Assembly (NCBI RefSeq): GCF_016026235.1
Contig: NZ_CP065613.1
Length of the DNA stretch: 64,000 bases
Reading direction: 5' to 3' (one strand)
From: Escherichia coli
Lineage (GTDB): Bacteria > Pseudomonadota > Gammaproteobacteria > Enterobacterales > Enterobacteriaceae
A program made the position numbers and the translations under genes. The notes beneath the pieces were generated by a model that was given only the letters and a program-made list of their open reading frames with translations, was not told the DNA's origin and ran no database searches. Positions within the stretch are counted from its first letter, which is position 1. Each line of letters begins with the position of its first letter. Shown in pieces: positions 6,393-58,400 of the stretch.

Positions 6393-8966
6393 TTACTGGA
6401 CGGCGACAATCCGGTCTTCATTAACTTCCAGGCGAATCACTTTACCCGGAACCAATTCACCAGACAGTATTTGCTGTGCCAGCGGGTTTTCGATCTGCTG
6501 CTGAATTGCACGTTTCAGAGGACGTGCACCATAGACCGGATCGTAACCGTTCTCGCTCAGCAGTTTCAGCGCCTCGTCAGAAATGTGGATTTCATAACCA
6601 CGTTCTTCCAGACGTTTATACAGACGTTTCAACTGAATCTGCGCAATCGACGCAATGTGCTGTTCACCCAGCGGATGGAAGACCACCACTTCATCGATAC
6701 GGTTAATGAATTCCGGACGGAAGTTATGGCTAACCACACCGAGCACCAGCTCTTTCATGTGCGCATAATCCAGTTCACCGAAGCGTTCCTGAATCAGATC
6801 GGAACCGAGGTTAGAGGTCATAATGACAACCGTATTACGGAAGTCGACCGTTCTCCCCTGCCCGTCAGTCAGACGCCCATCATCCAGTACCTGCAACAGA
6901 ATATTGAAGACATCCGGATGCGCTTTTTCCACTTCATCCAACAGGATGACGGAATACGGACGACGACGCACAGCTTCGGTCAGGTAGCCACCTTCTTCAT
7001 AACCGACATATCCCGGAGGCGCACCAACCAGACGAGACACCGAGTGTTTCTCCATAAACTCGGACATATCGATACGGACCATCGCCTCGTCGCTATCAAA
7101 CATAAAGTTCGCCAGCGCCTTACAAAGCTCTGTTTTCCCCACACCAGTTGGGCCGAGGAACAGGAATGAACCAATCGGGCGATTTGGATCCGCCAGCCCC
7201 GCACGGCTACGACGAATAGCGTTAGATACCGCATCAACCGCTTCGTTCTGACCAATAACGCGATGGTGCAGTTCTTGCTCCATACGCAGCAGTTTTTCGC
7301 GCTCGCTTTCCATCATGCGAGAAACCGGAATCCCCGTCCAACGCGCCAGCACTTCAGCAATTTCGGCGTCGGTCACTTTATTACGCAACAGACGCATAGT
7401 TTTGCCTTCGAGCTGCGTTGCGGCTTCCAGTTGCTTTTCCAGTTCCGGGATTTTGCCGTATTGCAGTTCAGACATCCGCGCCAGGTCCCCCACACGGCGA
7501 GCCTGTTCAATAGCGATTTTCGCCTGTTCCAGTTCCGCTTTAATGGTCTGCGTACCAGAAAGCGATGCCTTCTCTGCTTTCCACTCTTCTTCTAACTTGG
7601 AGTACTGACGTTCTTTGTCGCTCAGTTCTTCGTTGAGCATATCCAGACGTTTTTTACTGGCTTCATCAGACTCTTTCATTAACGCCTGTTGTTCCAGTTT
7701 GAGCTGGATGATACGGCGATCGAGTCGGTCGAGTTCTTCTGGTTTTGAGTCAATCTGCATACGAATGCTGGATGCTGCTTCATCGATCAGGTCGATGGCT
7801 TTATCCGGCAGCTGACGGTCAGCAATGTAGCGATGAGACAACGTCGCCGCTGCAACAATTGCCGGGTCAGTAATTTGCACATGGTGGTGCAATTCGTAAC
7901 GTTCTTTCAGGCCACGTAGAATCGCAATGGTATCTTCAACAGAAGGCTCGGCAACAAACACTTTCTGGAAACGACGTTCCAGCGCAGCATCTTTTTCGAT
8001 GTACTGGCGATATTCGTCAAGCGTCGTGGCACCTACGCAGTGCAATTCACCACGCGCCAGCGCCGGTTTCAGCATGTTTCCGGCGTCCATTGCGCCATCG
8101 GCTTTACCCGCGCCGACCATGGTATGTAATTCGTCGATAAACAGGATGACGTTGCCTTCCTGTTTGGCAAGATCGTTAAGCACGCCTTTTAAACGTTCTT
8201 CAAACTCACCGCGATATTTCGCCCCAGCCACCAGCGCGCCCATATCCAGCGCCAGTACGCGGCGGCCTTTCAACCCTTCCGGCACTTCGCCGTTGATAAT
8301 ACGCTGCGCCAGACCTTCAACGATGGCAGTTTTACCGACGCCGGGTTCACCAATCAGTACCGGGTTATTTTTAGTACGACGTTGCAGCACCTGAATGGTA
8401 CGGCGAATTTCTTCATCACGACCAATCACCGGATCGAGTTTGCCTTGTTCGGCTCGTTCGGTAAGATCGATGGTATATTTTTTCAAAGCCTGACGTTGGT
8501 CTTCAGCACCTTGATCGTTCACGCTTTCACCTCCACGCATTTGTTCAATCGCTTGAGTAATGTTGGCGGTGGTCGCCCCTGCTGCTTTCAGGATGTCGGC
8601 CAGCGTGCCGCGAGACTCAAGTGCCGCCAGAACGAACAGTTCTGACGAGATAAAGTTATCACCACGTTTTTGCGCCAGCTTGTCGCAAAGATTAAGAACG
8701 CGCACCAGATCCTGTGATGGCTGGACATCACCACCAGTACCTTCAACCTGCGGTAAACGATTTAATGCCTGATTGATATCTGTGCGCAACTGGCCAGCAT
8801 TTATGCCAGCGGATGTTAATAAAGGACTAACCGAACCCCCTTCCTGATTCAGCAGGGCGCTCATTAAATGAAGTGGTTCGATGAATTGGTTGTCGTGCCC
8901 GAGTGCAAGTGATTGGGCATCGGCAAGAGCAAGCTGGAATTTATTAGTAAGACGATCCAGACGCAT
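6393..8966 (-). CDS. clpB: ClpB disaggregase chaperone (AAA+, two nucleotide-binding domains)
   Basis: ORF 6393..8978; native start taken as [11 protein letters not shown] (857 aa); two Walker A motifs ([16 protein letters not shown]). Confidence 0.95.
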
Positions 8967-30879: not shown

Positions 30880-31242
30880 GGGGCTGATTCTGGATTCGAC
30901 GGGATTTGCGAAACCCAAGGTGCATGCCGAGGGGCGGTTGGCCTCGTAAAAAGCCGCAAAAAATAGTCGCAAACGACGAAAACTACGCTTTAGCAGCTTA
31001 ATAACCTGCTTAGAGCCCTCTCTCCCTAGCCTCCGCTCTTAGGACGGGGATCAAGAGAGGTCAAACCCAAAAGAGATCGCGTGGAAGCCCTGCCTGGGGT
31101 TGAAGCGTTAAAACTTAATCAGGCTAGTTTGTTAGTGGCGTGTCCGTCCGCAGCTGGCAAGCGAATGTAAAGACTGACTAAGCATGTAGTACCGAGGACG
31201 TAGGAATTTCGGACGCGGGTTCAACTCCCGCCAGCTCCACCA
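30880..31242 (+). ncRNA. ssrA: tmRNA (SsrA), 363 nt
   Basis: Begins GGGGCTGATTCTGGATTCGACGGGATTTGCG, contains the tag-encoding segment GCAAACGACGAAAACTACGCTTTAGCAGCTTAA (ANDENYALAA) and ends with the tRNA-like GGTTCAACTCCCGCCAGCTCCACCA. Confidence 0.97.
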
Positions 31243-31445
31243 AAATTCTCCATCGGTGATTACCAGAGTCATCCGATGAAGTCCTAAGAGCCCGCACGGC
31301 GCAAGCCCTGCGGGCTTTTTTGTATCTGCAATTTGTCCCGCGAAGTCCGAAGAGAACTAATTAAATCCGAACCTTTTAGGCCCATTGATAGGCCCAACGA
31401 AAAGCTCTATTGTTTTCGTTGGGCCTAAACGCATGGAGACTCCCC

Positions 31446-32687
31446 ATGGCAAGAAAAACCAAGCCGTTAACCGATACGGAAATCAAAGCCGCCAAACCTA
31501 AAGATGCCGATTACCAGCTGTATGATGGTGACGGGCTTACTCTGTTAATCAAGTCCAGTGGTAGTAAGCTCTGGCAGTTCCGTTACTATCGACCTCTGAC
31601 AAAGCAGCGAACCAAGCAGAGCTTCGGTGCCTACCCTGCCGTCTCACTTTCTGATGCGCGTAAACTCAGAGCCGAATCTCGAGTTTTATTGGCAAAAGAT
31701 ATTGATCCTCAGGAACATCAGAAAGAACAGGTGAGGAATTCTCAAGAGGCCAAAACCAACACCTTCTTGTTAGTTGCCGAGCGTTGGTGGAATGTGAAGA
31801 AAGCCAGCGTGACAGAGGACTATGCCGACGATATCTGGCGCTCGCTTGAGAGAGATGTTTTTCCAGCAATCGGTGATATCAGTGTCACTGAGATTAAGGC
31901 TCATACTCTGGTTAAAGCAGTTCAGCCGGTTCAGGCTAGAGGTGCATTAGAAACTGTTCGCCGTCTTTGTCAGCGTATTAACGAAGTCATGATTTATGCG
32001 CAGAACACGGGCCTGATTGATGCGGTTCCCAGCGTAAATATCGGAAAAGCGTTCGAGAAGCCTCAGAAAAAGAACATGCCGAGCATCCGGCCTGATCAAC
32101 TGCCTCAACTGATGCAGACGATGCGAACAGCAAACATCAGCCAATCAACACGATGCCTGTTCATGTGGCAGCTTCTTACTATTACCCGTCCTGCCGAAGC
32201 CGCTGAAGCTCGATGGGATGAGATCGATTTTGAAGCTAAAGAATGGAAAATTCCTGCAGCTCGAATGAAGATGAACCGGGACCATACGGTTCCATTGTCT
32301 GATGGAGCTCTCGCTATTCTGGCAATGATGAAGTCACTCAGTGGTGGCCGAGAATTTATCTTTCCTAGTCGAATCAAACCAACCCAGCCGATGAATAGCC
32401 AAACAGTGAATGCAGCACTCAAACGTGCTGGATTGGGAGGCGTTCTCGTTTCTCATGGCTTGCGTTCTATCGCCAGTACCGCCCTTAATGAACAAGGCTT
32501 CCCACCTGATGTTATTGAAGCGGCGCTGGCTCATGTGGACAAAAATGAAGTACGTCGCGCTTACAATCGCAGCGATTATCTTGAGCAGAGACGCCCGATG
32601 ATGCAGTGGTGGGCAAACCTTATAAAAGCGGCAGATAGTATTCCTACCGTTTGTAACGAAGTAGCAGGTCTTAGATTGGTTGGGTAG
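31446..32687 (+). CDS. intA: P4/CP4-57-type tyrosine integrase (site-specific recombinase)
   Basis: ORF 31410..32687; start taken at MARKTKPLTDTEIKAAKPKDADYQLYDGDGL (413 aa); sits directly 3' of ssrA, the classic attachment site of CP4-57-like elements; C-terminal HGLRS and Y-containing catalytic region. Confidence 0.9.
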   Translation: MARKTKPLTDTEIKAAKPKDADYQLYDGDGLTLLIKSSGSKLWQFRYYRPLTKQRTKQSFGAYPAVSLSDARKLRAESRVLLAKDIDPQEHQKEQVRNSQEAKTNTFLLVAERWWNVKKASVTEDYADDIWRSLERDVFPAIGDISVTEIKAHTLVKAVQPVQARGALETVRRLCQRINEVMIYAQNTGLIDAVPSVNIGKAFEKPQKKNMPSIRPDQLPQLMQTMRTANISQSTRCLFMWQLLTITRPAEAAEARWDEIDFEAKEWKIPAARMKMNRDHTVPLSDGALAILAMMKSLSGGREFIFPSRIKPTQPMNSQTVNAALKRAGLGGVLVSHGLRSIASTALNEQGFPPDVIEAALAHVDKNEVRRAYNRSDYLEQRRPMMQWWANLIKAADSIPTVCNEVAGLRLVG

Positions 32688-33162: not shown

Positions 33163-34032
33163 TTGGTTGATAATGGAAAGGTAGTTTGCCCTATATCTGC
33201 TACTGTTTTTTTAGAACTAATGAAACAGAACGATATCGAAACAAGGATGGCCACAGCCAAAATTATTGATCATCTGAGTTTTGGAGTTACACTTATAGCT
33301 AGTCATGAGAGAGTCAAACAAGAATTATGTAATGCTACGTATTCGATTTTGGGAGCTAAGGACAGCATTCCAATTGATCAATTAGTATGGACCAAACTAA
33401 GTTATATTTTCGGCGATTACCATCCATACGATACATCTTTCGATGCAGCTGAAGAACTGATCATTCAGAAATCTTTTTTTGATCATATGTGGGATATTTC
33501 ACTCGTTGAAATGATGAACCATATCAACTATGAAAGCTGGGAACAATTTGATTGGCAGAAAACAACAGAAATGCTTAACTTGGCTAATAAAGAGCATACC
33601 AATGAGCTTAGAAGCTATCAACACGCATATCGTATTGAGTTCGACGGAGTGTTAAGCCTTTTCAACGAGCAATTAATCCAGATATTCAAAGAGGCTTACA
33701 AGGCCGGATATAACAATGATGAAATTAATAATAAGAAAAAATCAAAAAATGAAAAACTTAAACAATTTGCACAATTAGTCCGTACTTTACATATTGGTGC
33801 CTCTTGTCATGCTGCAGTAAGATGGGATCAGAAACGCCAGCTCAATGGTAATGATCTTTTAGATTTTCATCATGCCGAAGCAGCTTTAGGATATTGTGAT
33901 TTATTTTTGACTGAAAAACCTTTGAAAGTTCTAGTGAGTCAAGAACATTTGGGATTAAGAGAATTATTCTCATGCTCTGTTGAGTCATCAGCTAGTGAAG
34001 GGCTCAAGATACTTAACATGTGTAAAATATAA
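33163..34032 (+). CDS. hypothetical protein, AT-rich island cargo (no family recognised)
   Basis: 289 aa ORF (TTG start in the track; the true start may be an internal ATG); low GC; convergent with the 565 aa gene. Confidence 0.55.
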   Translation: MVDNGKVVCPISATVFLELMKQNDIETRMATAKIIDHLSFGVTLIASHERVKQELCNATYSILGAKDSIPIDQLVWTKLSYIFGDYHPYDTSFDAAEELIIQKSFFDHMWDISLVEMMNHINYESWEQFDWQKTTEMLNLANKEHTNELRSYQHAYRIEFDGVLSLFNEQLIQIFKEAYKAGYNNDEINNKKKSKNEKLKQFAQLVRTLHIGASCHAAVRWDQKRQLNGNDLLDFHHAEAALGYCDLFLTEKPLKVLVSQEHLGLRELFSCSVESSASEGLKILNMCKI

Positions 34033-34185: not shown

Positions 34186-35883
34186 CTAATCATCTATTTT
34201 AAAATCAAAAATCCTTAAAATATCATTAAATGATGCTTCACATTGCCCCACAAGGCTAGTGAAGTGTGCACGTAGATTTTCATGATCGGTACGCGCTTCT
34301 AATATCGCTTTCTTCTTTTTTTCTGTAGAAGCATGTCCGCGTACTTCGGTTCGTAGAGCATGCAGTTTTTGCATAGGCTGAACTAACATTTTCGCTTCAT
34401 CTACTGTTGCACTTTTAGCAATAAGAGCTTCTTGTAGTATGCGCAAGGATCCCCATTTGGGTTCAATGATTCGGCCCTCATATTTAGCAATTTCACTCAG
34501 TGGCTTTGGTAAAAAGCCCTCAACTAAATACTGATCAAGCGCAAGGATTTCATCACCCCACTCTTTGATTGAATCTGTTGCAGGATACTGAACAGCGCCA
34601 CTCAATACTGTACCCCGTGGCTTCCACCAGGTGGGAGGATTCTTGTCCATTAGCGAAATTTTGTGTTTGAGTGCCAACAATGGTTCATTGGACAGATACC
34701 ATTCCCCAACAATATCCGTCTGAAATGCACGCTTAGAAATTGTTCCTTTTGGCCATTCATTGAAGGCTTGCCAATAGAGCTGTTCTTCATAAGGTAAATG
34801 AGCCAAATCACCAATGTATACATGAACTTGCCCGGCCTCATTAATATCATAGGATTTTAAATACCAAGCATTTCGACAAGCAATACTTCTTTCATCTAAA
34901 GTATATTTTTCTGGATCCGCCTTGAAACGATGTAACACTTCTGCTCTAAAAAAGGCAGGTGAAACTTCCCACGGTAATTTATTTTCTTGAAAATAGTTAG
35001 ATAGTGAGTCTGGTCCGCAAGATGTTTCAACATTGCAGCTATTTTTACGATCGTATATTTTAAAGGTTGCGTATTTCCTTTTAGATGGATTATCTTCATC
35101 CTTCCATGCTTTTACCAGACCGCGCACAGTTACTTGAGGGCGAATGATCATTACACCATTACAGTAACTGGCTTCCCCGTTAATACCACCATGATAAAAA
35201 AGACTCCCTTCATCTTTAGTATATCTGTTGATATTCCCCCAGCCAGCAAAATTACCCCATCTGACACGTGTAAAATCAAACTTTAAAACAAGACATGTTT
35301 TGGATAAAGCCATGAATGTATCTAAATCCTTTCTCTTAATAGTAACTATATCCAGATAGTTAAAAGGAGGTGAAATATTTTTGTTAATTATCCTGATTAC
35401 ATCTTCAATATCACCCCGTTCATCGAGACGACAATATGCATTTCTTTCTGGCAAGTAATATAACCCAAGGCTGTGCACAAGTTTCTGACTTAATTCGATA
35501 GGTGCACGGCCTTCTTCAACGCCATGAAACCTACGACGATAAATTAATGCCTCTCCCCCTTTGAACACCCCATCTAAAGGTGGCTCAAGATAAATACGAT
35601 GTCCTTGACCTCCACCCCATGACTTTTGAATCTTCCAACAATACTCAACATCCATACGCATATTCTGCAATGCCCATCTATCTGCTGTAGTAACATTTTT
35701 CTCTAGAGCTAGCGCGCCATGAATTAGGACACTATTTCCAATCGCGTAGATAACCACTTCATCATTTTGAGCATTTTCTTTCAGAAATTTAATTGACCTT
35801 TCAGCCTCTATTAACCAAGCGGCATCATCATTCTGTGGCTTTTCCGAAATAGCATGAAGCTCTGTGAATTTAAATTGGCTCAT
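34186..35883 (-). CDS. hypothetical protein, 565 aa (island cargo; no family recognised)
   Basis: Long uninterrupted ORF starting MSQFKFTELHAISEKPQNDDAAWLIEAERS...; AAGGA upstream of the ATG; lies directly downstream of the STAND operon. Confidence 0.7.
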   Translation of the reverse strand: MSQFKFTELHAISEKPQNDDAAWLIEAERSIKFLKENAQNDEVVIYAIGNSVLIHGALALEKNVTTADRWALQNMRMDVEYCWKIQKSWGGGQGHRIYLEPPLDGVFKGGEALIYRRRFHGVEEGRAPIELSQKLVHSLGLYYLPERNAYCRLDERGDIEDVIRIINKNISPPFNYLDIVTIKRKDLDTFMALSKTCLVLKFDFTRVRWGNFAGWGNINRYTKDEGSLFYHGGINGEASYCNGVMIIRPQVTVRGLVKAWKDEDNPSKRKYATFKIYDRKNSCNVETSCGPDSLSNYFQENKLPWEVSPAFFRAEVLHRFKADPEKYTLDERSIACRNAWYLKSYDINEAGQVHVYIGDLAHLPYEEQLYWQAFNEWPKGTISKRAFQTDIVGEWYLSNEPLLALKHKISLMDKNPPTWWKPRGTVLSGAVQYPATDSIKEWGDEILALDQYLVEGFLPKPLSEIAKYEGRIIEPKWGSLRILQEALIAKSATVDEAKMLVQPMQKLHALRTEVRGHASTEKKKKAILEARTDHENLRAHFTSLVGQCEASFNDILRIFDFKIDD

Positions 35884-35927
35884 GAGTAATATTCATATCC
35901 TTTTACTTTATCTATAACTGACATCAC

Positions 35928-35976
35928 TTATAAGTTATAAGTTATAAGTTATAAGTTATAAGTTATAAGTTATAAG
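35928..35976. repeat. perfect tandem heptanucleotide repeat (TTATAAG)x7
   Basis: 7 exact head-to-tail copies read directly from the sequence, in the 120-bp gap between the stop of the 482 aa gene and the start of the 565 aa gene. Confidence 0.95.
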
Positions 35977-36002
35977 TTCCCCTTATGAATTAAGAAATAA
36001 CA

Positions 36003-37451
36003 TCAAACAAATACCACCCCTCTCGTAATTTTTTCACTGAATCTGCCATAACTTCCATTACGATGGAATCTACGTACTTGCCAAGAGTAAAATGAGCGCA
36101 ATGACCCGGTATTTGTTATGTTTCTCTCGCGATATGTAGTGCCTCGCGATATGAGGGCTGTCCCACAATTACCTTGAATTTGCCCTAGCCTAGCTGGCCC
36201 CCATCCAGCATTCCAATAATAAAGCTCTGCGACGACTAGGTCCTTTAACTTAACCTGTAGACGCCCATCATGCGGGATGACTTCAAGAGAATTTTCTATG
36301 CCTGGCATCGTCGGTAAAAATAACCGGGATGGATACAAATCATGTTGTAGGTATCCTATCCGACCAAAATCGAGCATTCCCGCCAATGGCCAAGCCATAC
36401 AAGTTTTATTCACCAGTTGTTCAAAAGTTGGTGGAGTTATTAAGGTTGTTGTACTGAGTGGATCCGGAGCTTGGCTGGAAAGCATTTGTTCACGTGTCCA
36501 GAACGATTCAATATGGGATGTCAACGAGTCCGCTCCTTCCTTATCACTGCTTACAGTTTGTGACCACCGAACAATCGACAACTCTACGCACTGTTCCATT
36601 GACATTGAAATGGGCGAGCTAAATGCAATTAGCTCGTCTCCTGGGTTTGCCGCCTCTACTTGAGCAAAGAAAGTTCGCAATGAAGCCTCGATCGCCTTAC
36701 TATCACTTTTGAATTCAGTCGATACTGAGAGCCATTCGGGACGATAAGGTCGAAGAAAAGCCAAAGTTGGATGGATAGGCAACGCCAAGAGAGAATGTTG
36801 CTCGGTCAACTCCATTGGTATCCTCCAGATGTGTCTAGCCACAGCTAACGTGCGAAGATAAGCGGAAATTACGCGAAGGGCTGTTCGAGAGGAAAAATGA
36901 GGGGCAAAGCCCTCTCCCAAGGGCCGAATGAAATATCCTGCATCCCCTTGGTACGGTGCATTTGGATATGCCGTCCGGTTTTTTGTCCATTCGAAGGCCA
37001 TTTGTCGAATAAATGGACAGCGGGTAAAAGTTTCCAACTTGCTAATGGTTATATGGAAGATTCTTGGCAAATCCGTACCTTGAACACTATCAAAGTCATC
37101 GGGAATGATGAAGTCTTCTGGAGCTAGTTCCAAATCAGTATTCATGAGCAGAATCGATAACCCAAAATCTTTCATCAACAATGATGAAAGTGGTGAGGGT
37201 AGAAGAATATTCTCTGCCAACAAAGTCGTAGGAAAGTAGTTAAACTCTTTAATTGCCATCCAGAAAATACATAATACTTCGACAACCTCGGCTTCAAGTT
37301 TGCGCGAGCGCAGCAATTGAAGCAGCAATGATTCGGTTTCAGCTTTCGTCTCAGGCTCTCCCAGTCGAGCGGCAAGCTCCTGGATAGTCCACCACCGAGC
37401 AGACGTAGCAGGCCATCCAAGACGGGCAATAAGAATGCGAAGATCGTTCAT
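36003..37451 (-). CDS. hypothetical protein, about 482 aa, third gene of the STAND operon
   Basis: ORF 36003..37496; start more likely the ATG at 37451 (MNDLRILIARLGWPATSARWW...) because it overlaps the stop of the upstream gene as ATGA. Confidence 0.7.
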   Translation of the reverse strand: MNDLRILIARLGWPATSARWWTIQELAARLGEPETKAETESLLLQLLRSRKLEAEVVEVLCIFWMAIKEFNYFPTTLLAENILLPSPLSSLLMKDFGLSILLMNTDLELAPEDFIIPDDFDSVQGTDLPRIFHITISKLETFTRCPFIRQMAFEWTKNRTAYPNAPYQGDAGYFIRPLGEGFAPHFSSRTALRVISAYLRTLAVARHIWRIPMELTEQHSLLALPIHPTLAFLRPYRPEWLSVSTEFKSDSKAIEASLRTFFAQVEAANPGDELIAFSSPISMSMEQCVELSIVRWSQTVSSDKEGADSLTSHIESFWTREQMLSSQAPDPLSTTTLITPPTFEQLVNKTCMAWPLAGMLDFGRIGYLQHDLYPSRLFLPTMPGIENSLEVIPHDGRLQVKLKDLVVAELYYWNAGWGPARLGQIQGNCGTALISRGTTYRERNITNTGSLRSFYSWQVRRFHRNGSYGRFSEKITRGVVFV

Positions 37452-40400
37452 TTCACTTCCTGGGCGATTGGCTCGAGCAGTTTTGACATCCAGCAAGGTG
37501 GTTCTAAGGGCAAGGTCCGAGTATCCTCAATCACACAATTAACCATCGTCTCTGTGAACTTTACAGCTTCATCAATGCGATTTTGCTTAACGTAGAAATA
37601 GACCATAACTTCCGATGGAGCTAGGCGTGACGACACTGGCTCATCAAACATGTTGTAGGTTGTTACGGCCACAAATTCATCACAGCGCTGCGGATAATTT
37701 TGGACAACCAGGTCGAGTCTTTTGCAAGTCACATCCACGTTCTCCATGTAACCAATCCATCCCCCATTACGGATCTGTGCATGAACAAGATACTTCCAAG
37801 CTGCAGTTAAGCCACTTAATCTACGTTTTGTTTGAAATGCAAACTCGGAAAGATGTAGAGCTTCCCTCATCCATTTGTTGTTTTTTGCAAATAAAATCTT
37901 ATCCAGTTCGACGAGTAAATTTCGCCCCTGCTTTTGGCTTTCCCAGTGCTGATACCAAGTACGGAGAAGTTTTGGACGCTCTTTGTAATATGGTTCCAGA
38001 ACTTTGAGCAAGTCTTCCAATTGTTCAGGTCTAAAGACCGTCACATCACCTTCATAAGGTTTATTGTCAGCGTCACTACTTGAATTTTCGTGGCGTTGTA
38101 AACAACCAATATCCCATCCATTATGCTCTTCAAGAATGCGAAGCCGCTCGGAAGCAGTTGTACAACCATCCTCTACAAGTTGTTGAAGTGTATCCCGAAT
38201 TTCGGGATGAAGGCCTGTGCGCATTAGAGCATCCAGAGGCCACTCTTCAATGATTCCCTGTTTGATGTAGGCCTGCATACTGCTCTCGGCCAAAGCCCAG
38301 TCACCCACACATGTATGCTCTTCAAATTTTATTACCAATGCGGAAGGCTTCAGCTTTGCCAGTAGCCGATCTGCTTCAGCAAGAACATGTCTCGTACCCT
38401 TACCATCGGTGTAATCCAAAACATGGTGTATTTGCGGCGCAATTTTAGCCAGTAACCGACAAGCTTCTTTCGGCACTACATCAACTAAATAAGCGATGGC
38501 ATCAACCGTATTACTCAGTGTCGGATCTTTACGATGTCCGTATCCAGTGGTCAATTCCCACGTCTGCGTGCAAAGCTCACGAGCCTCCGAATTCAGTTGA
38601 TGGGAGATCGCTATCGCACAGAGTTGTAATGGTATTTGAAGATGTACACTGGTCTCATTTTGAATGTCTGCATCAAGTAACAAACGTTGAGCGCCAATGA
38701 ATGTTATAGCCGCTTCGTCGGCCATTCTGATCAATGAACCAGATGCGTACTGAGTGCGGAATGACGCACTATCGAACCAAGCGCATTGCAACGCAGCATC
38801 AATAGTCGATTGGGAAAGTACCACAGCACTAGTTCCCGAAAGCAGAACACTACCAATATATATATCGCAAGCAATACGGTGTAGTGCCGCTTGAAAGTCC
38901 GCCGTTGCCGATTTTCTAAAATAACTTTGTCTAAATCGCCGCGATTCAACAGGCTCGAGTAATTCATACAGCTCATGGAAGTTGATGAATTCCCCACACC
39001 ACCATCGTTGGGCTATTTGTGCACCAATTCCGGACAGTACATTGAGATAATCAGTAATATCTTCTCTATCTTCGTACATAGGGGCTTTGATGTGCTCGAA
39101 GTTTGTTTGCCCTTCTGCAATCATACAAAGATTCAGATGTACGGCACCAAACAGCCAGTGGTGCGTGAGAGTTGCCAAATTATCTTTGTGTTTGTAATAG
39201 CTGTCGCTTATCCAGTTCACCGGGATTGGTTGGCTCGAAGGAGTTGAGGTTTTGATTAACGCGACCTCTATTGCAGCCACAAATGGAGTTCTGACAAGTT
39301 CGTCGAAGTCCTCTCGCTCGGTCACTACTACCCCTGCAACCGCAGCCGCTCGTATACAAGCATCGCTAATTATGTTCTTTTTCTGTCCATCGGGTAGAGA
39401 AGCTGCTAGCAACATTAAATCATCCAAATTACCTTTTTGAATCAGCATTTGAACGCGAGGTAACCATATGTCCGGGCTATTTTTGTCGACTAACCAAGCG
39501 AGATTTTCAGATGTATCAGCGATAACGCCAAGCTGTGTAAATGCACTGGCCAGAAACAAGAGTTCATCAGAACCAGCCCTTGAATTATATTTATTGGAAA
39601 ATTGGCATAGGGCTCTGAACCGATGAAAGGCTTCTTCACCGCAAATTTCTGCCTGAATAATATCCCCTCGAGACAGTAAGGCCAGACCAAGTGCAACAAC
39701 GTGTAAAATATCCGTTTCATGCCTAGAGGCTATAGACTCACGTATCACACTTTCCTCTGAGGTTAGTGTCAATGTAAAAGATATGAGCCTAGCCAGATCG
39801 CTATCCTGCATCTGAAATTGACTTCCATCAACCATACGAGCTTTCAGATGCGCCAACCGGTAGGCATCTGAAAAATTTGCAGTTTCAAGCGCAGCGCTCA
39901 GGGCTTCTGACAATAATATCTCAAATAAAGCTTCTGAATATCCTTCTTTTAAGCGACTCATGATCCAGTCACGAGTTAAACCTGTAATGAGATTGTTGGG
40001 GTTACCAAGCTTCGCTTGAACTGTCCATAACCAGTTCACTCGTAGTGAAGTAGGTGCCTGATGTTCAAGCCAGTCTGCAATAACAGGCATTAATTCATTG
40101 ATTCGACTCTCATAGTCATCAGTTGCACGTACGAAAACAGCCAAACTTTCATGGAAGACTTTAAGACCAGCCACAGACGAATGGAGCAAATGCTCTACTT
40201 TATCCACATCTGGTTCCACCGCCTTAATTTTGGTAGCAATCTCTGAGAAGGCTGTCTTAGGCCAGAAAAAAGTAAAGGCACAGATAAGCCTTAGCGTATC
40301 CTTTTGGCTTGGAGCAAGACGTTCCCATAGAGATGCATAGTAAAATCGGGCGTCTTGGCTCAAGTCTCCCTTCAACTGCTCAATATCCCAACTGGATAGT

Positions 40401-41875
40401 CTGCGACCCGAATGTTTCAATTCTGATGTAGCATAAATAACGTGAAGAGGATGGCCATTAGTTTTCTTACGAAGAGCGGATGCTGCACTCTGCAGTTGTT
40501 CTTCAATTTGTTCTTCACTTTCAAAACCAGTTGTAAGCCAGCCTTCTTGAACTGTTCTACGTAGATAAGAAAGTACTGCACTCTCAGACATTGCAGGCAA
40601 TGTATGCCACTCAGATTTTGGTGCAAAGGCGAGCAAATCCGCTGGCAACTGTTCGTCATTTACCGGTTGAGTGCCGACGAGCAGTACCATATTTTCCGGG
40701 CAGGGAATTACCTGACAGAAAAGGTCATCTAGTGGTCGTTTATCCTCAGCGTTGATACGCCAGACATGATCCAAACCATCAAGAATGAGCACAAATGGCT
40801 TTCCCAGTACTTTGTAGTGGGCAGCACATGCCTCCAATTGTGTATGTAAGCCTCCACCAGTTTTCGGGACATCCTCGTGAAACTGTTGGATCTGCGCCAG
40901 AATGGATTGCTCGACAATGTAGCTATTAACCCGGTCGCGGCCTCGCTCGGTTGTCGACAGAAAATAGTGATGGCGAACCGTTGGGATACCTTTTTCTGCA
41001 AGCGTGTCGCACAGTGCGCTCAGGTAAGTACTCTTTCCGCGTCCTGGTGGACCAGTCAGCACAATTGCCTTTCCGGTAGCATTAATTGTGCTCTGGACAA
41101 ATTCTTGATGGAATATTTCATCAGGAACCTCATAACCTTCTGGAACAACAAAATCCTCTGGCAAAGGAGCTGGAGGTGAAGCTCGCAAGATGGTTCCAAC
41201 CTCTGCCAGTTTAATCCAGCCATCCGGCGCAGGGAGATTTTTTTGCGTTGCCCAATTCAGAGCCACATATTTTAGATTAGCGATTCCCTCTGGCGTACCA
41301 TGCAGTCGAAGGCGAGCATCAACTTCATGCTCCAATGCAAGATAGCCCTTATCGCTGTGTCGAATACATAATTGTCTGAAGAAAAGTTTGCATTCCTCAA
41401 CGCCGCCGAGTTCAACTTCTACCAAGGTGCGCTGAGGTTCTGGGATCTTAGAAGGATCAATCCGGTCTCGTTCCAGACAAACCTCAATAGCAGCATCTGG
41501 TCGGCGATTCGTTATGAGCGAAATTTCGCCAATACGCACTGGATCAAGTTGTTTGAAAGCATCGAACCATTTGCGTAGCATCGATCTCGACCGCTCTGTC
41601 TTGCCCGTTTTCTCCAGCATCCAATCCCAAGATAGAAGATGCGTCTCAGAATCTGGGGTGAACTTGATCTGCTGAAGGTCAACGAAGCCATCACTTCGTT
41701 CGATGACGATATCATCTAGTCCCTGTGGTGCTTCGTTTTCATTATCACATTCAAATTTCACGCGGCTATAGCGCGTCGGCGCATCAAGCCAATCGCACAG
41801 GACCTTAAGGCCCTGGCGATTTTGATAAATATAACCAGCTGCAGTGATGGCGGTTTTCTTAATATCTTCACTCAT
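37448..41875 (-). CDS. STAND-class P-loop NTPase (NACHT-like) with N-terminal nuclease-like domain and long C-terminal helical region; candidate anti-phage sensor/effector
   Basis: 1475 aa; Walker A VLTGPPGRGKST, Walker B FVLILDGLDHV (hhhhDGLD, NACHT-type); N-terminal ~250 aa contain ...GLDDIVIERSDGFVDLQQIKF (D...QxK, restriction-endonuclease-fold-like); C-terminal ~1000 aa helix-rich with no enzymatic motif. Confidence 0.8.
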   Translation of the reverse strand: MSEDIKKTAITAAGYIYQNRQGLKVLCDWLDAPTRYSRVKFECDNENEAPQGLDDIVIERSDGFVDLQQIKFTPDSETHLLSWDWMLEKTGKTERSRSMLRKWFDAFKQLDPVRIGEISLITNRRPDAAIEVCLERDRIDPSKIPEPQRTLVEVELGGVEECKLFFRQLCIRHSDKGYLALEHEVDARLRLHGTPEGIANLKYVALNWATQKNLPAPDGWIKLAEVGTILRASPPAPLPEDFVVPEGYEVPDEIFHQEFVQSTINATGKAIVLTGPPGRGKSTYLSALCDTLAEKGIPTVRHHYFLSTTERGRDRVNSYIVEQSILAQIQQFHEDVPKTGGGLHTQLEACAAHYKVLGKPFVLILDGLDHVWRINAEDKRPLDDLFCQVIPCPENMVLLVGTQPVNDEQLPADLLAFAPKSEWHTLPAMSESAVLSYLRRTVQEGWLTTGFESEEQIEEQLQSAASALRKKTNGHPLHVIYATSELKHSGRRLSSWDIEQLKGDLSQDARFYYASLWERLAPSQKDTLRLICAFTFFWPKTAFSEIATKIKAVEPDVDKVEHLLHSSVAGLKVFHESLAVFVRATDDYESRINELMPVIADWLEHQAPTSLRVNWLWTVQAKLGNPNNLITGLTRDWIMSRLKEGYSEALFEILLSEALSAALETANFSDAYRLAHLKARMVDGSQFQMQDSDLARLISFTLTLTSEESVIRESIASRHETDILHVVALGLALLSRGDIIQAEICGEEAFHRFRALCQFSNKYNSRAGSDELLFLASAFTQLGVIADTSENLAWLVDKNSPDIWLPRVQMLIQKGNLDDLMLLAASLPDGQKKNIISDACIRAAAVAGVVVTEREDFDELVRTPFVAAIEVALIKTSTPSSQPIPVNWISDSYYKHKDNLATLTHHWLFGAVHLNLCMIAEGQTNFEHIKAPMYEDREDITDYLNVLSGIGAQIAQRWWCGEFINFHELYELLEPVESRRFRQSYFRKSATADFQAALHRIACDIYIGSVLLSGTSAVVLSQSTIDAALQCAWFDSASFRTQYASGSLIRMADEAAITFIGAQRLLLDADIQNETSVHLQIPLQLCAIAISHQLNSEARELCTQTWELTTGYGHRKDPTLSNTVDAIAYLVDVVPKEACRLLAKIAPQIHHVLDYTDGKGTRHVLAEADRLLAKLKPSALVIKFEEHTCVGDWALAESSMQAYIKQGIIEEWPLDALMRTGLHPEIRDTLQQLVEDGCTTASERLRILEEHNGWDIGCLQRHENSSSDADNKPYEGDVTVFRPEQLEDLLKVLEPYYKERPKLLRTWYQHWESQKQGRNLLVELDKILFAKNNKWMREALHLSEFAFQTKRRLSGLTAAWKYLVHAQIRNGGWIGYMENVDVTCKRLDLVVQNYPQRCDEFVAVTTYNMFDEPVSSRLAPSEVMVYFYVKQNRIDEAVKFTETMVNCVIEDTRTLPLEPPCWMSKLLEPIAQEVK

Positions 41876-41879: not shown

Positions 41880-44800
41880 TCAAGGTATGTTTAGTTCGGT
41901 TTTGATCCAAGTGTCCAAAGTGTCTACACGTACAAACTGGGTCGGAACAGGATATGGCGGATGAACCATCCAGTAGTACACATCGCGGCTTACATAGAGT
42001 TCAATATTCCTTAAAGGAACACTCTCTGGCTGTGGCCACTGGAGCAGTTCAAGCAACCTTGAACGGTGAGTTTCGAGAAATTTTCTGCGGTCTAAAATAC
42101 GACTGAATTGTCCTGCCCTGTCATTCTCTGCCTTGCCAAATATCCGATCACGAAGACGACGGCTATCTTTCATTGTAAATGGCGGCTGGTTGTACTTACA
42201 CTCTACTGTCACGAGCAAATTGCTTTCCGGCCAGTATGCAAAAACATCGAAATCACCAACGTCATCAAACTTCTCTTCCCGGAATCTTCTAAAGAAATCA
42301 ATACCTCGCTGAACATAAGGTGTATGCCTGCGGAATATTTCCTCTGTACGAAGCTCGAGACGCTTTTCAATACTCTCCTTAACCTCGCGAATGACTGGCT
42401 TAACATGAGGCCAATCAAATTCCGCAGGCAAATAACCGTCTCGTACCGCCGACATCCAAATGTACATTGCCCGGCTTGCCGACTCTGCCCCCCAACGCAA
42501 ATCGGCACCATCAATTACCAGCGGCTTGATAGTGTATCGATCGATTCGCTTATTCCGCTCCCAATATGGAATATCTCCTTCATCGATATCCCTTCCAACG
42601 AGCCTACGAACTCCTACTTCCGAAAGAGTCAGAAAAGCAACAATCTTTTGGGCCTCAGAATAGTCAAGCCTATCAATGCTATCAGCCAACCCTCGCGCAA
42701 GGCGATCAGGTGCTGCAGCATAAGACAAGGAAAGTTCGTTCCCGAATCCATATCGTTGAGCTTGCGATAACACAGCGAGAACAGTGAGCATATTCTGAAG
42801 CTCGAACCCCAAATCGGTGATAAAAGCTTTTTTGAGTTTCTCTGAAGCCAGCAACCCCTCTGGCTCTCCTTCCACCGCATCCTTGTCATTTGTGCCAAGC
42901 CCCAACCTGGACTTCGCATACTCCTTTGCAAAGGTAGCCTCACGATCACCAAAATCTGTCGAATAGAAAACTTCTGGAATATATGAGTCGTCGATCTCAA
43001 CACCACCCACATCTATACCATTGTGAAGGGTATCACTGGCACCAGTCAGCACCATGAACCAATCAACCAAGCCAACTAATTCTCGTAGTACATCCTCTGT
43101 AACTCTATCTACACCATTTGAAGATAAATTGACGGTCTTCTCTAGTAGATATCGATAATGGCGGGCCTTATCACCGAATTCTTTGCGTGCATGTTCTATC
43201 GCATCAAGTCTGTCATACTCAACTTCATGAGCAAGACTCAAACGGGCTCGTTGGATTCTAGTCCTCTCAGTAACAAGGAGGGCATCGTGTTGCTCGATGA
43301 ATGCCTGCAGAAGCTGATGCCTATCAAATGCTGCAAGTCGATTCTCAATGTGAAGACGCATGCGAGCACTGGAAGGATCAATCCTGGCCTTGGCATCTGA
43401 CAGTTCATACCTGCCAGGAATAAACCCAAGCCCCATGATTTCTGCGGCCAGTTTTCTACGGGCAAGCTTGTAATCGGTAGGCGAAGGAATTATAGGGTAT
43501 ACATAGTCGGGGACATCAATATTACGGGTCATGACTTTTAAATGATAACGAGCCGCTTGCGACGCTATATGAGTAAATCGTTGAGCAAATTCATCAGGCA
43601 TCTGCAAACCAAGTACTGCATGACATTTTTCGAGCGTTTCCAGTAAGCAACGAACCTCGAATGATCCATCCTTGGAAAGATTTAATCCAGCAAGCACTGC
43701 ACGTGTATCAACTTGAACGTGAAATACATCGGGGTTGTGGGAATCCGGGATGACTGAAGTCACCACGTGTTTAAATTCGTCTAAAGAAGAAGGACTCTCT
43801 TCAGCTTTAACCAGACTAGATGGTTCAGGGGAGCACGTAAACAAAACATGCGGCTGCCTAAATAGAGAAATATCAGACATCATTTTTCTGCAGCGATAGC
43901 TACAGTCGGCCAGAAGTTGGGCAAAAAGGTCTATCAGACGTCCATCTTCAAAGCGTAATTCTTTGGTTATTTCTATTAATGTTTGAACGGTACAGGAACC
44001 AATCGATGTTGAGTATGCCATCGCTTTGTGATGACGCGATTCAAGTCGAACGACACCTTCAGTTGAAGAACTCAACGTCCATCCGATAGAGCTGTCTGGA
44101 AATACCTTGGGTGCACGAGACCAGAATTCTGTCAATATCTTGAAGCGCCAAGAAGTCCCCCAGTGAGGGTCTAGCCCAATGAAGTTAGGTGCAATCGCAC
44201 CTTCGACAAGCACACCATGCATGTCTTTGAATGATGCAAACAGGTCTACTGTTCCACGGGAAAATGGGCTGAGCGTCCCCTCTTGAGCATCTGTAAATTT
44301 CCAATAACTTTCTAATTCTTCCAGATCGTTGAGACTATCAAAAATCGTGATGAAATCCGCTAATGGAAACAAACGAGTTGGCTTTGAGGGGAGATTGATG
44401 GAATTAAACGCAGTACCCGCGAGTGTAACGACAATAACGATGTGAAGCTCATCGACGCTAGGTTCTGCACCAACTCTAGATAGAGAAAGGAAACGTCCAT
44501 CATCAAGACGGAAGAAAATCGGCGATCCACGACTCACCTTGGCGTATATGCTTTCCGCTGCGTTTGACAGGCGGTCATTAGATGTATGGTCACATGTGCA
44601 AATGAGATATATCCCAGAATTACCCAGTATAATACAACTGATAGGCAGGTCTTTGCAGGCGGTGCCGTCAACATACAGAGTCAAAGGCCCTATAAGGGTT
44701 CTTTGGAATCGCTCAGCGACAAACTCTGCAAGTTTCCTGTGCGTAGAGGGGCTAATCCCGTTCAGATTTTTGTTAGCCCAATGGTCAATAATGAGACCCG

Positions 44801-45662
44801 GTGCACTGCGTACTGACATTGGTATCCATACCCTATCCATCTCGACAGCAAGGAAAGGTAGCGCCATGCCTTGCATCACTGCATTTCCGAACGCATCCGG
44901 TTTCAGCGGTGCTTTGAAAGTGCCAACACGAGTATCGAACGTACACCCTGCTTTCTTTCGGCGGTTCGCTAGCTCATTGCCAAGTTGTTGAAGCAAAGAC
45001 TTGCAAGTCAACCAGAAGTCTTCAGTAGCTAGTTCAACATCAGCACATTGGGCCTCGGTGTTGACAGAGAGCATCAACTCAGGAATCGATTCGATGATCT
45101 GCGCTTGCAGCGCAATGGCAAGATCCATATGGGCTTGTGCTTCTGGAATATGAGCATAGGTAATGCGAAATGCTTCTACGAAGTCAGACATTCTCTCAAT
45201 GCAACTCCCGTAGAACATAGGGACGAAGTCTTGACCAAGCCGTACTTTGATTTGCCCCCAATCAGCCTCGGGGGAAAAATCCTCAAGCATTGGGAATTCA
45301 GGCCATGATGCGTATAATTCTTTTGTAAATACTTTAAAATCTACATAGCTATCAATCGATATACCTACCTGAGACTCAAATGGCAGCTCTAAAAGGACAC
45401 ACCAAGCAAAAATATGCTTTATGGGGCTACCTGTATTGGCTGGCCAGAGTTCGGAAGTAAATAATGCAACTGCTACGTCGAGGGTTTTGTATCGGCGAAA
45501 TAAATTCTGGGTGGCTTCCAGATGCTTACAAAAGTATGTGTCTTCACCTACCCCATTCGTAAACAATTCACGATATCTGGACATATCGTGTATCAAAGAA
45601 TCATAATCAACCTTTTGCTCTGTTAGTTTTCTTTCCCGCTTTTCACGTGACTTCCTACCCAC
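41880..45662 (-). CDS. large protein (1260 aa) with C-terminal PD-(D/E)xK-like nuclease motif; first gene of the STAND operon
   Basis: GTG start preceded by GGGAGGA Shine-Dalgarno; no Walker A found on reading; C-terminus has GDFDVFAYWPESNLLVTVECKY (D-x15-ExK); stop lies 4 nt before the start of the STAND gene. Confidence 0.75.
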   Translation of the reverse strand: MGRKSREKRERKLTEQKVDYDSLIHDMSRYRELFTNGVGEDTYFCKHLEATQNLFRRYKTLDVAVALFTSELWPANTGSPIKHIFAWCVLLELPFESQVGISIDSYVDFKVFTKELYASWPEFPMLEDFSPEADWGQIKVRLGQDFVPMFYGSCIERMSDFVEAFRITYAHIPEAQAHMDLAIALQAQIIESIPELMLSVNTEAQCADVELATEDFWLTCKSLLQQLGNELANRRKKAGCTFDTRVGTFKAPLKPDAFGNAVMQGMALPFLAVEMDRVWIPMSVRSAPGLIIDHWANKNLNGISPSTHRKLAEFVAERFQRTLIGPLTLYVDGTACKDLPISCIILGNSGIYLICTCDHTSNDRLSNAAESIYAKVSRGSPIFFRLDDGRFLSLSRVGAEPSVDELHIVIVVTLAGTAFNSINLPSKPTRLFPLADFITIFDSLNDLEELESYWKFTDAQEGTLSPFSRGTVDLFASFKDMHGVLVEGAIAPNFIGLDPHWGTSWRFKILTEFWSRAPKVFPDSSIGWTLSSSTEGVVRLESRHHKAMAYSTSIGSCTVQTLIEITKELRFEDGRLIDLFAQLLADCSYRCRKMMSDISLFRQPHVLFTCSPEPSSLVKAEESPSSLDEFKHVVTSVIPDSHNPDVFHVQVDTRAVLAGLNLSKDGSFEVRCLLETLEKCHAVLGLQMPDEFAQRFTHIASQAARYHLKVMTRNIDVPDYVYPIIPSPTDYKLARRKLAAEIMGLGFIPGRYELSDAKARIDPSSARMRLHIENRLAAFDRHQLLQAFIEQHDALLVTERTRIQRARLSLAHEVEYDRLDAIEHARKEFGDKARHYRYLLEKTVNLSSNGVDRVTEDVLRELVGLVDWFMVLTGASDTLHNGIDVGGVEIDDSYIPEVFYSTDFGDREATFAKEYAKSRLGLGTNDKDAVEGEPEGLLASEKLKKAFITDLGFELQNMLTVLAVLSQAQRYGFGNELSLSYAAAPDRLARGLADSIDRLDYSEAQKIVAFLTLSEVGVRRLVGRDIDEGDIPYWERNKRIDRYTIKPLVIDGADLRWGAESASRAMYIWMSAVRDGYLPAEFDWPHVKPVIREVKESIEKRLELRTEEIFRRHTPYVQRGIDFFRRFREEKFDDVGDFDVFAYWPESNLLVTVECKYNQPPFTMKDSRRLRDRIFGKAENDRAGQFSRILDRRKFLETHRSRLLELLQWPQPESVPLRNIELYVSRDVYYWMVHPPYPVPTQFVRVDTLDTWIKTELNIP

Positions 45663-55460: not shown

Positions 55461-58400
55461 TCAGAACGACCAGTTCACACCAGCCACCGCGTTCCACGGG
55501 GATTCCACATCGGCACCGTTGCTATACCCCACCCCGAGATGCCCGCTTAACGTACTGCTGAATGAGGCTTTAATACCTGCCTGGTATATTCCACGTCTGC
55601 CCGACAAATCATTGACGAAATTACCGTCATTATTCACCTTCACCCGGTTATCATCGACAAATTCTTTGCGCACAGCCGCCTTCAGCCACGGCTCAACTTC
55701 CATACCGTTTCCCAGACGCATGTTGTAACTCAGCGTTGCGCCCAGTTCACGATATATACTGCGGGTATCGACTGATTTCGATTTCATGCCATTGGATAAA
55801 TGATATTCGGGGTTATCAGCGGTGAACCCCGTTAACGATGCATACGGCGTCAGGTTCCAGTTACCATCGGTAAATCGCATCCCGGTTTCAATGTGCCCCC
55901 CCAGCCCGTTGCTGTGATAACTGCCGTTGGCGGCTCCACCGCTGCTCATTTTACCGGCTACGTTACTTTCAAAACGGTTCAGCTTCACGATACCGTCCAG
56001 ATAGAAACCACTTTCATGTTCCCAACTGGCATAGCCGCCCAGAGAATAACTGCCCACACTGCCATGTCCTCCACGATCAAAACCGATATGTGAATGGGAA
56101 TAACCCATAAAAGCGCCCAGCGTCGCAATCCCCTCAGGAATATCATTACGGCTGTCGATCCCCACTGTCATTCCGGTCAGCGTCTGCTCAAACCCGGCAC
56201 CCGCATCGGTGGTGACATTATTACGGGTGTTATACGTCGCCCCCCAGACATTATTGTTGTGTGGACTCGCTTTCATTATGTTCAACCGCTCGCGAATACT
56301 GTTTAGCTCAGCATCAAATACCAACGGTAATGTTGCAGCCATATTGAGTACGGCTGCCGTAGAAGGCGTGATGCGTTTCTCCGGAACGGGTGTCGGCGTT
56401 GGATCGGGAGTCGGGTCTGGTTTCGGATCCGGTTTTGGGTCTGGTTTTGGATCCGGCTTCGGATTTGGGTTGGGATTTGGGTTGGGATCCGGGTTGGGTT
56501 TGACATCATTGGTCAGGTTCCAGTTGCTGTTGCCGTCGCTTTTCAGGACATACTCATAGGTCCCAAGATCAACGAAACCGCCGGTATTGCCCAGCGTAAA
56601 CGAAGCATCCCCTCCCCCTGTTTTCACCAGCGTCATCGCATCGTCAGACTGAGGGCTGACGCCGGTATCCTGAACAAAGATTTTAAAATTACCAGTGGCG
56701 TTGTTGTTGACGACCAGTTGATCGCCCCGGGAGCCAGCAACGTTGGTATGCAGGTAGAAATTACCGCTGCCGGAAAGTTCATTGGTTGTCAGCGTATTGT
56801 AGATACCGTTAGTTGTGGCAGGCGCTGCTGTTTGTGCTGATAAATAAACATCACCGTCGTTGAGTAGCAAACTGTTTACTCTATATTCGCAGTTGCTGGT
56901 ACCTGCACAGGAATTATTGCTGTTAAGCCAGACACTGCCCCGGCTGGCAGCCGTCAGGTCGGCAAGCGTGGTATCGACGCCATTTCCCAGAGTTAATGTC
57001 GCGCTATCGGTAATCCGGACCGCCCCTTCAAGTTTTACTGGCGTAACATTATCCCGTGGCGTGATTAACGACAGGCTTCCTGTCGCGCCACTGACCGATG
57101 CATCCGCCAGCGTACCTGCGTAGACGATTGCCGTCCCGCCAGCGACCTGTAGATCTTCTGCCCGGGCCAGAGCCTGAAACTCATCTTTTGACCGCCCAAG
57201 GGTATATTGCCCACCAGAGTTAACCTTTGTGGCGGAGTCCTGACCCAGGTTTTGCATTGCACCACCCTTGCCAACCGTGGAGTCATGGGCTTCGGTACCT
57301 GCTAATACCAATAAATTACCACCATTTTCCAGCAACATATTGGTCGCTAAATTTCCGGCAATGGAAAAGGTGCCGTACTGGTGAGTACCGCTGATTTCAA
57401 TACCGTTAGCCGTGCTCGTCTGGAGAGCGGCACCGCTGTTCTGGACGATATCTGTCGCTTTGCCATTATCGTTGACTGTCAGCGTTCCGCCTTCATTGAT
57501 CGTTGTTTTTATTGCTTCTCCGTTAGCTGAAACTGTTTGTATTCCGCCGTCGTTAATTGTTGTCTCATTCGCCACACCCTCGACGATTTGTTCACCGCCG
57601 GTGAGCGTCGTGCCTGTCGCAGTGGCTTTTGTTTTGACGATCTCCCGTCCGCCCGTATTGACCTGTGTTTTGTCAGAAGAGGTGTCTGACTCCACGGTTA
57701 ACACGCCGCCATTTGCCAGCTGGATATTGTTCGCCGCATCCTGCTCAATGCTGAACGCGACGCCATCAGCGCGTGTCCCTGTGACCCGCGTCGCCCTGGT
57801 GGTTGCAACCAACGCGCCCTGGCTACTCTGCTGTATCCCCGTTGCGCTGCCTTTCTCCCGCACATCGAGTGTGCCGCCGTCATTAAGCACCGAGTTTTCA
57901 GCCAGACCGCCCTCATTAACTACCTGTGAACCCCCATTAATAATGGAACCTTCCGCTGTCCCGTTTGCCATAATTTGTTGTAGGCCAGAGACGATATCGG
58001 TATTGATTGCCTTACCATAATTCTGAACGGTTTGCGTGCCACCATTGATGTGTGTTTTCTCTGTTGACCCACCATCAACAATTTGTTCACCACTTTCGAT
58101 ATTTGCTTCAGTGGCTAAACCATATACCGTTTGCTTGCCACCTTTGATATTTGCTTTATCAGAAGTGGCACTGGCATATATTGTTTGGGTGCCAGCACTA
58201 TTGAGTACAGTGCCAACATCTTTTCCATAAACATCCATTTTGCCGTTGGCATTAATAATCGTGTCAACTGCCCGGGAACCAGTGACGACTGTTAATGAGC
58301 CAGCGTTTTCCAGCACTACATTTTTAGCTTCTGAATTCCTGATGTAGAAAGCATCACCATAACTGTTGGTTCCTTCGATAAGTGTTCCGGAGGTCGTGGA

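Follow-up and report, generated by a model that had tools for sequence, protein, structure and literature searches.

A hypervariable heptanucleotide repeat upstream of an ApeA-like HEPN gene in an Escherichia coli genomic island

Introduction

The best studied counterpart of the element described here is the 7-bp repeat, (ATCTTTC)n / (TGAAAGA)n, that precedes the genes hmw1A and hmw2A of Haemophilus influenzae. This repeat is transcribed, and the resulting hairpin in the 5' untranslated region is cut by RNase III; the expression of hmw1A is inversely proportional to the number of repeats (PMC2651432, PMC12721329). Here we describe a tract of perfect TTATAAG units in a 64,000-nucleotide stretch of Escherichia coli DNA (contig NZ_CP065613.1), which is called the window throughout. 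The tract is located in a genomic island, between a gene for a protein of 482 amino acids (aa) and a gene for a 565-aa protein that resembles the HEPN nuclease ApeA. It shares with the hmw repeats the 7-bp unit, the non-coding position some tens to about 100 bp upstream of a start codon and a copy number that differs between strains. The two systems also differ: the hmw tracts comprise 11-38 units, which pair with a separate G-rich arm, whereas the units of the E. coli tract are predicted to pair with each other, and the hmw genes encode adhesins and not defence proteins. The graded, rather than on/off, expression of the hmw genes has been demonstrated experimentally; the likeness of the E. 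coli tract in this respect is a proposal.

Few repeat-based contingency loci are generally credited to E. coli, and neuO is the best-known case; a literature search returned no survey of how rare such repeats are in this species. The poly-psi heptanucleotide repeat of neuO in E. coli K1 belongs to the CUS-3 prophage and changes by slipped-strand mispairing (PMC9659370, which cites the original description). Both this repeat and the TTATAAG tract are thus heptanucleotide repeats on an E. coli mobile element. The neuO repeat, however, is intragenic and serves as a frameshift switch, whereas the TTATAAG tract contains stops in every frame. Repeats in promoter spacers include the TA repeats of H. 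influenzae hifA/hifB and the homopolymers of Neisseria porA and opc. Like the present tract they are intergenic, and they alter transcription of the adjacent gene. They do so by setting a distance of 15-19 bp between the -35 and -10 elements, whereas the TTATAAG tract measures 21-84 bp and changes in steps of 7 bp. Finally, the variable-number tandem repeat (VNTR) loci used for multiple-locus VNTR analysis of E. coli are short tandem repeats that vary between strains, usually without a known function. The TTATAAG tract has a strain-variable copy number in common with them; its restriction to about 0.2% of complete genomes means that it is not a general typing marker. Neither the repeat sequence nor the RefSeq accessions of the proteins turned up in the literature library that was searched. 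Elements of this kind are already known; the tract adds a case that is unusual for its host and for the class of the adjacent gene.

Results

The tract is perfect and non-coding

The tract consists of (TTATAAG)x7.3 at window positions 35928-35978, with 100% matches and no indels, and is the top-scoring tandem repeat of the 64-kb window (Tandem Repeats Finder score 102). The chance expectation of a perfect 51-nt run with period 7 is about 1e-20 in 64 kb of this composition. The relevant genes around the tract are all encoded by the minus strand, on which the unit is CTTATAA; on the plus strand it is TTATAAG. The core hexamer of the unit, TTATAA, is its own reverse complement. The tract and the sequences on either side of it are as follows:

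35979-36002, minus strand: unique spacer from the TGA of the 482-aa gene to the tract; holds a weak -35-like TTCATA
35928-35978, minus strand: heptanucleotide repeat tract; seven perfect units (35928-35976) and two further in-register bases
35884-35927, minus strand: fixed 44-nt leader from the tract to the ATG; holds the degenerate pseudo-unit GTTATAG, a weak -10-like TAAAGT and AAGGA

An earlier reading of the window from its letters alone (the sequence-only reading) had placed seven exact copies 45-93 nt upstream of the start of the 565-aa gene and directly after the last stop codon of the STAND operon. Our coordinates agree with both statements; the ATG is at 35883-35881, and the tract begins 24 nt past the TGA (36005-36003) of the 482-aa gene. 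The Shine-Dalgarno sequence of the 565-aa gene, AAGGA at 35902-35898, is 14 nt before the ATG and downstream of the tract. Of its bases, 86% are A or T, and TpA steps are numerous. Inspection of the sequence shows a TAA stop in each of the three frames of either strand; the tract is therefore non-coding and cannot be translated. For the same reason a switch of the coding frame, as in neuO, was rejected.

Copy number varies between near-identical islands

The locus is present in 11 of 5,426 complete E. coli genomes (about 0.2%); searches of plasmid and phage collections revealed no copy of it. The 11 complete genomes contain 3, 4, 6, 8 or 9 units, compared with 7 in the window. The full sample comprised 42 non-duplicate E. 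coli sequences, i.e. complete genomes and contigs that encode four variants of the 565-aa protein, which are indexed in about 1,350 blocks of the collection; the sample is not random, since the look-up lists similar places only once. The alleles were distributed in the following way:

3 units: 6 of 42 sequences
4 units: 18 of 42 sequences (mode)
5 units: 7 of 42 sequences
6 units: 4 of 42 sequences
7 units: 2 of 42 sequences
8 units: 2 of 42 sequences
9 units: 2 of 42 sequences
12 units: 1 of 42 sequences

The eight alleles (3-12 units, equivalent to a tract of 21-84 bp) give an allele diversity of 0.75, and each unit is perfect in all 42 sequences. Alleles with 1 or 2 units were not seen in this sample, and no class of copy number modulo 3 was in excess. 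The 2.5 kb of flanking sequence contains only 7 variable sites, most of which are singletons. Islands with identical flanks of 6,450 bp nevertheless differ in their number of units; such groups contain 3, 4 and 4 units, 4, 5 and 6 units, or 5 and 7 units. A G/A polymorphism at window position 35093, which is non-synonymous and affects codon 264 of the 565-aa gene, divides the islands into two main haplotypes with means of 3.8 and 5.9 units (p = 8e-5). The differences between islands with identical flanks, together with the haplotype signal, indicate that copy number changes faster than substitutions accumulate but that ancestry has not been erased. The tract is a real mutational hotspot, which is hypervariable between near-identical islands. 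The sequence-only reading had called the repeat prone to slippage and had set a comparison of copy number across related genomes as a test beforehand. The range of 3-12 units among near-identical islands is in line with slippage, and the comparison revealed variation and not invariance.

Some of the assemblies are based on long reads, which are able to miscount repeats, and errors of assembly or sequencing could in principle produce apparent differences in copy number. We find this explanation hardly credible, because all of the differences are whole, perfect 7-bp units, because they occur in complete genomes, short-read drafts and metagenome contigs from many laboratories and platforms, and because a tract of 21-84 bp is shorter than one short read.

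The repeat arose recently

The gene order NACHT, 482-aa, 565-aa is also found in Photorhabdus, Serratia, Lonsdalea and Pectobacterium. In Lonsdalea and Pectobacterium the 1260-aa gene, which is the first gene of the E. coli cassette, is present upstream; the Photorhabdus and Serratia loci start inside the NACHT gene. The 565-aa homologue from Photorhabdus tasmaniensis is 95% identical to the E. coli protein, and the homologous site in this species reads GTTATCA CTTATAA, which is a degenerate unit followed by one unit. The spacer at 35979-36002 has only one difference in 24 nt from Photorhabdus, and it differs in Serratia, Lonsdalea and Pectobacterium. Part of the leader (AAAAGGA...ACTCATG) is conserved in the relatives. 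Serratia, Lonsdalea, Pectobacterium and an additional sequence (L014) have a homologous spacer of 89 nt without the repeat; the E. coli spacer with 3 units has 91 nt. No comparable repeat was detected in 18 upstream regions of other members of the 565-aa family. The proto-unit in Photorhabdus and the repeat-free spacers of the other relatives indicate a recent origin of the microsatellite within the island as it occurs in E. coli.

The L014 sequence (5037-7911) is a deletion derivative of the cassette that has lost the NACHT gene. Where the match to the 1260-aa gene ends, after its first 858 codons, the sequence goes on with a match to the final 106 codons of the 482-aa gene; the ApeA-like gene is intact together with its 89-nt spacer.

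The Photorhabdus spacer has a further property. At about 2430-2460 of P. tasmaniensis T327 (L038), in a region homologous to window 35920-35985, there is a perfect 16-bp palindrome, ATCACTTATAAGTGAT. The chance of such a palindrome in the 84-nt Photorhabdus spacer is about 0.002. It resembles an operator of the lambdoid type with the half-sites ATCAC/GTGAT, and E. coli has kept 7 of the 8 pairs at the promoter-proximal end of the tract.

Only leader length and predicted hairpin size follow the copy number

A standard scan of window positions 35500-36400 detected no intrinsic terminator and no consensus sigma-70 promoter. The tract was rejected as an intrinsic terminator of the upstream operon, since the scan found none and since no U-run follows the hairpin. 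Promoter candidates were also scored with our own approximate sigma-70 matrix, in which the consensus reaches 17 and lacP1 reaches 10.4. This analysis gave two weak candidates. One combines TTCATA with TATAAC in the second unit over a distance of 16 nt (score 8.1); the other combines TTATAA in the last unit with TAAAGT over 17 nt (score 7.4). Both are unchanged in alleles with at least 3 units. The tract as a variable spacer between -35 and -10 was rejected as well; it measures 21-84 bp, compared with a spacer of 15-19 bp, and the standard scan found no promoter. The spacing between the Shine-Dalgarno sequence and the ATG cannot change, because the tract is upstream of the former. The sequence-only reading had suggested that changes in unit number shift the spacing of the promoter or of the ribosome binding site; neither effect is borne out by these results, since the distance from Shine-Dalgarno to ATG is fixed, the tract is too long for a -35/-10 spacer and the weak promoter candidates are insensitive to the number of copies.

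Across the stretch from Shine-Dalgarno to AUG, bases are predicted to be unpaired with a probability of 0.46-0.52 for 0-12 units. With this flat profile, occlusion of the ribosome site by RNA structure was rejected. The predicted RNA of the tract is a self-paired AU hairpin with free energies of -7.6 kcal/mol for 3 units, -16.0 for 7, -19.6 for 9 and -25.3 for 12. The length of the leader and this self-paired hairpin are the only properties that scale with copy number. As single-stranded DNA, the tract is predicted to form a hairpin of -7.5 kcal/mol (z = -3.5). The region of the tract has no match to an Rfam family at E <= 1.

The downstream gene encodes an ApeA-like protein

The 565-aa protein is composed of an N-terminal beta-rich domain and a C-terminal HEPN fold. 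Its start codon, M1, is invariant across 53 aligned homologues, and the Rx5H motif (R511-x5-H517) is invariant in the alignment of the family. Among the Foldseek matches are proteins annotated with ApeA N-terminal or Apea-like HEPN domains. The protein has the structural features looked for in the ApeA family, namely a C-terminal HEPN fold, a conserved Rx4-6H motif and an ApeA-like N-terminal domain. On the sequence level it has no match in Pfam even at E <= 10, none in PADLOC at E <= 10, and none in NCBIfam or among PDB sequences. The family of the 565-aa protein is large, with about 1000 matches; the best-scoring 120 of these are 60-80% identical to the query and come from a range of distant bacteria.

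ApeA, an anticodon nuclease of the HEPN type, provides defence through abortive infection (bioRxiv 10.64898/2026.01.26.701840). Both ApeA and the 565-aa protein are single polypeptides with a HEPN fold at the C-terminus, and both are about 570 aa long. The two differ in that the 565-aa protein is unmatched by the Pfam and PADLOC models and in that its gene, in Enterobacterales, is not a lone gene but closes a four-gene NACHT cassette. Outside the Enterobacterales the homologue stands alone on mobile elements. Because the sequence models of the family fail to match, membership in ApeA proper is not established. The resemblance to an abortive-infection nuclease makes 'defence-associated' a reasonable label for the gene, and it is reasonable to describe the product as an ApeA-like, putative defence RNase. 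The gene is probably toxic and probably encodes an abortive-infection RNase. DARNA was rejected as the identity of the protein; the HEPN domain of DARNA is N-terminal, with R117/H122.

In the 565-aa protein, the segment from about residue 294 to residue 399 ranks with the best conserved parts of the family and contains many invariant W, R, E and N residues, yet it was modelled with very low confidence (pLDDT 30-45). This segment may have a fold that is absent from known structures, or it may be ordered only in an oligomer.

The cassette and the island

The tract separates the last two genes of a four-gene cassette on the minus strand. The genes of the cassette and the integration site of the island are:

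41880-45662, minus strand: 1260-aa gene, first of the four-gene cassette; function not assigned
37448-41875, minus strand: 1475-aa NACHT/STAND NTPase; N-terminal region resembles a PD-(D/E)xK nuclease
36003-37451, minus strand: 482-aa gene, last before the tract; overlaps the NACHT gene by 4 nt
34186-35883, minus strand: 565-aa ApeA-like gene, last of the cassette, after the tract
30880-32687, plus strand: ssrA (tmRNA, 30880-31242) and island integrase (31410-32687); mark the integration site

There are 4 nt between the 1260-aa gene and the NACHT gene. The 1475-aa protein, which RefSeq annotates as a NACHT domain-containing protein, matches Avs1b (4e-11) and, at its N-terminus, SAVED_PDDEXK, Effector endonuclease and LmuA. 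The 482-aa protein (WP_000999054) is the same in all 11 complete genomes. Neither this protein nor a 289-aa protein encoded nearby has a match in Pfam, NCBIfam or PADLOC. The island is inserted at ssrA, with the integrase gene adjacent. The suggestion in the sequence-only reading that the gene after the repeat is associated with defence thus fits the ApeA-like HEPN fold, the NACHT cassette and the position of the island at ssrA.

Several other observations concern the cassette and its surroundings. A gene of 261-289 aa (window 33163-34032, plus strand) is convergent with the 565-aa gene and AT-rich (35% GC); Pfam, NCBIfam and PADLOC contain no match to it. Genes of similar size occur 3' of 565-aa homologues in Pectobacterium (258 aa), L035 (275 aa) and L036 (277 aa, FRG domain); the convergent gene may be a partner of the 565-aa gene. 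Insertion sequences have struck the island independently in a number of genomes. In L003 (about 1392-2089) the 565-aa gene is truncated by IS1, and the NACHT gene is cut by IS600 in L004 (about 5220-6376) and by IS1 in L020 (1-70); a further IS1 is located next to the 289-aa gene in L002 (279-976). The NACHT product is shortened in two further genomes (L009 and L027). The independent insertions in several genomes, together with the shortened NACHT products, suggest that the cassette is frequently inactivated.

A second tandem array was noted elsewhere in the window. It is an imperfect array of 12/24 nt at 56401-56502, with 78-84% matches, inside an open reading frame on the minus strand (55461-60176) for a 1571-aa autotransporter adhesin of the AIDA-I/Ag43 type. 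The array is in frame, as its period is a multiple of 3, and its variation could alter the length of the protein.

Discussion

The analysis establishes the repeat itself and its non-coding position, its hypervariability and recent origin, and what kinds of gene flank it. With respect to function, we tentatively consider it most likely that copy number has a graded effect on the 565-aa gene by way of a transcribed leader; a neutral repeat is a close rival. Nothing that we computed predicts an on/off switch. In the favoured explanation the tract would be a young, E. coli-specific heptanucleotide microsatellite, derived from a proto-repeat (GTTATCA followed by CTTATAA) that is still present in Photorhabdus. 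Whole units would be gained and lost by slipped-strand mispairing. MutS-dependent mismatch repair does not correct loops as large as 7 nt, so that the tract can be unstable even in cells that are proficient in repair; as the core of the unit is palindromic, a slipped single strand can also fold back on itself. The conserved arrangement of the cassette on one strand and the lack of a predicted terminator imply that the tract is probably part of a polycistronic or leader RNA. The tract would then be transcribed ahead of the ApeA-like HEPN gene, as its leader or as intercistronic RNA, and would fold into an AU-rich hairpin, which every added unit lengthens. Through processing or stability, the amount of downstream transcript or protein may change in graded steps.

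A number of results weigh against this explanation. Neither the standard scan nor our own matrix provided a convincing promoter for the 565-aa gene. The predicted hairpin is built from A-U pairs alone, together with C-C mismatches, and it is possible that it does not form in vivo. Neither the orthologous cassettes of other genera nor the 18 upstream regions of other family members have the repeat, which hence gives no sign of conserved selection. The difference in mean copy number between the two haplotypes and the prevalence of short alleles, with 3-4 units in 24 of the 42 islands, are both in keeping with a neutral microsatellite. It is indeed a serious possibility that the tract is a neutral VNTR in slippage-prone, AT-rich intergenic DNA, with no meaningful effect on its neighbours, which the cell would tolerate since it encodes nothing. 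Its restriction to one lineage and its absence from orthologous loci, the skew of the alleles towards short tracts with a mode of 4 copies, the way in which copy number follows the flanking haplotype, and promoter candidates and a ribosome-site accessibility that are independent of copy number are all compatible with neutrality. The intergenic position, too, is expected without any function, since a unit that is not a multiple of three persists only in non-coding DNA. What speaks for an effect, on the other hand, is that a probably toxic gene has its start codon 45 nt away from the tract, and that no allele with 1 or 2 units occurs among the 42 sequences. Moreover, a hairpin-forming insert of 21-84 bp in a leader usually alters expression to some extent, as it does at hmw (PMC12721329).

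Two regulatory mechanisms other than a graded leader effect were considered. A binary phase-variation switch, in which certain copy numbers bring promoter elements or an activator site into register, could draw on the hypervariability of the tract and on the fact that a step of 7 bp rotates the upstream DNA by about 240 degrees, so that a factor bound upstream changes its helical face. Repeat tracts just upstream of promoters occur in other bacteria, for example at nadA in Neisseria. For the E. coli tract such a switch is nevertheless quite improbable; the tract exceeds the length of a -35/-10 spacer, the standard scan yields no promoter, the anchoring of the two weak candidates leaves them unaffected by copy number, the alleles show no excess in any class modulo 3, and the Shine-Dalgarno-to-ATG spacing is fixed. 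The earlier proposal of a phase-variable switch on a defence-associated gene is therefore upheld for the hypervariable tract and for the defence-like gene, but a binary switch is not indicated. Alternatively, the TTATAA units could multiply an operator-like site or nucleate H-NS or another nucleoid protein, with the number of copies setting the degree of repression. The tract is 86% A+T with many TpA steps, and H-NS prefers DNA of this kind. The perfect 16-bp palindrome of Photorhabdus (ATCACTTATAAGTGAT) at the same position, with its chance of about 0.002, and the survival of 7 of its 8 pairs in E. coli, at the promoter-proximal end of the tract, also point in this direction. However, the palindrome is absent from Serratia, Lonsdalea and Pectobacterium, no gene for a cognate regulator adjoins the tract, and the binding motif of no known factor was matched; we regard a protein-binding array as highly improbable.

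The tract may be a genuine contingency locus, which by frequent changes of length spreads a clonal population over different expression levels of a toxic ApeA-like RNase, or over different ratios of this RNase to the NACHT cassette, and which in this way hedges phage immunity against self-damage. We think that this is rather unlikely. If true, it would represent repeat-driven variation of an anti-phage gene outside restriction-modification in a species that is thought to have very few such loci. Even if the tract has no effect on expression, the locus is still a fast-evolving marker for tracking the island. The alleles with 3-12 units constitute a natural allelic series upstream of a probable abortive-infection RNase and could serve to probe how a toxic immune effector is dosed. 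Should expression prove to depend on the tract, heterogeneity driven by repeats would reach beyond surface antigens and restriction-modification systems to defence genes of the NLR and HEPN type.
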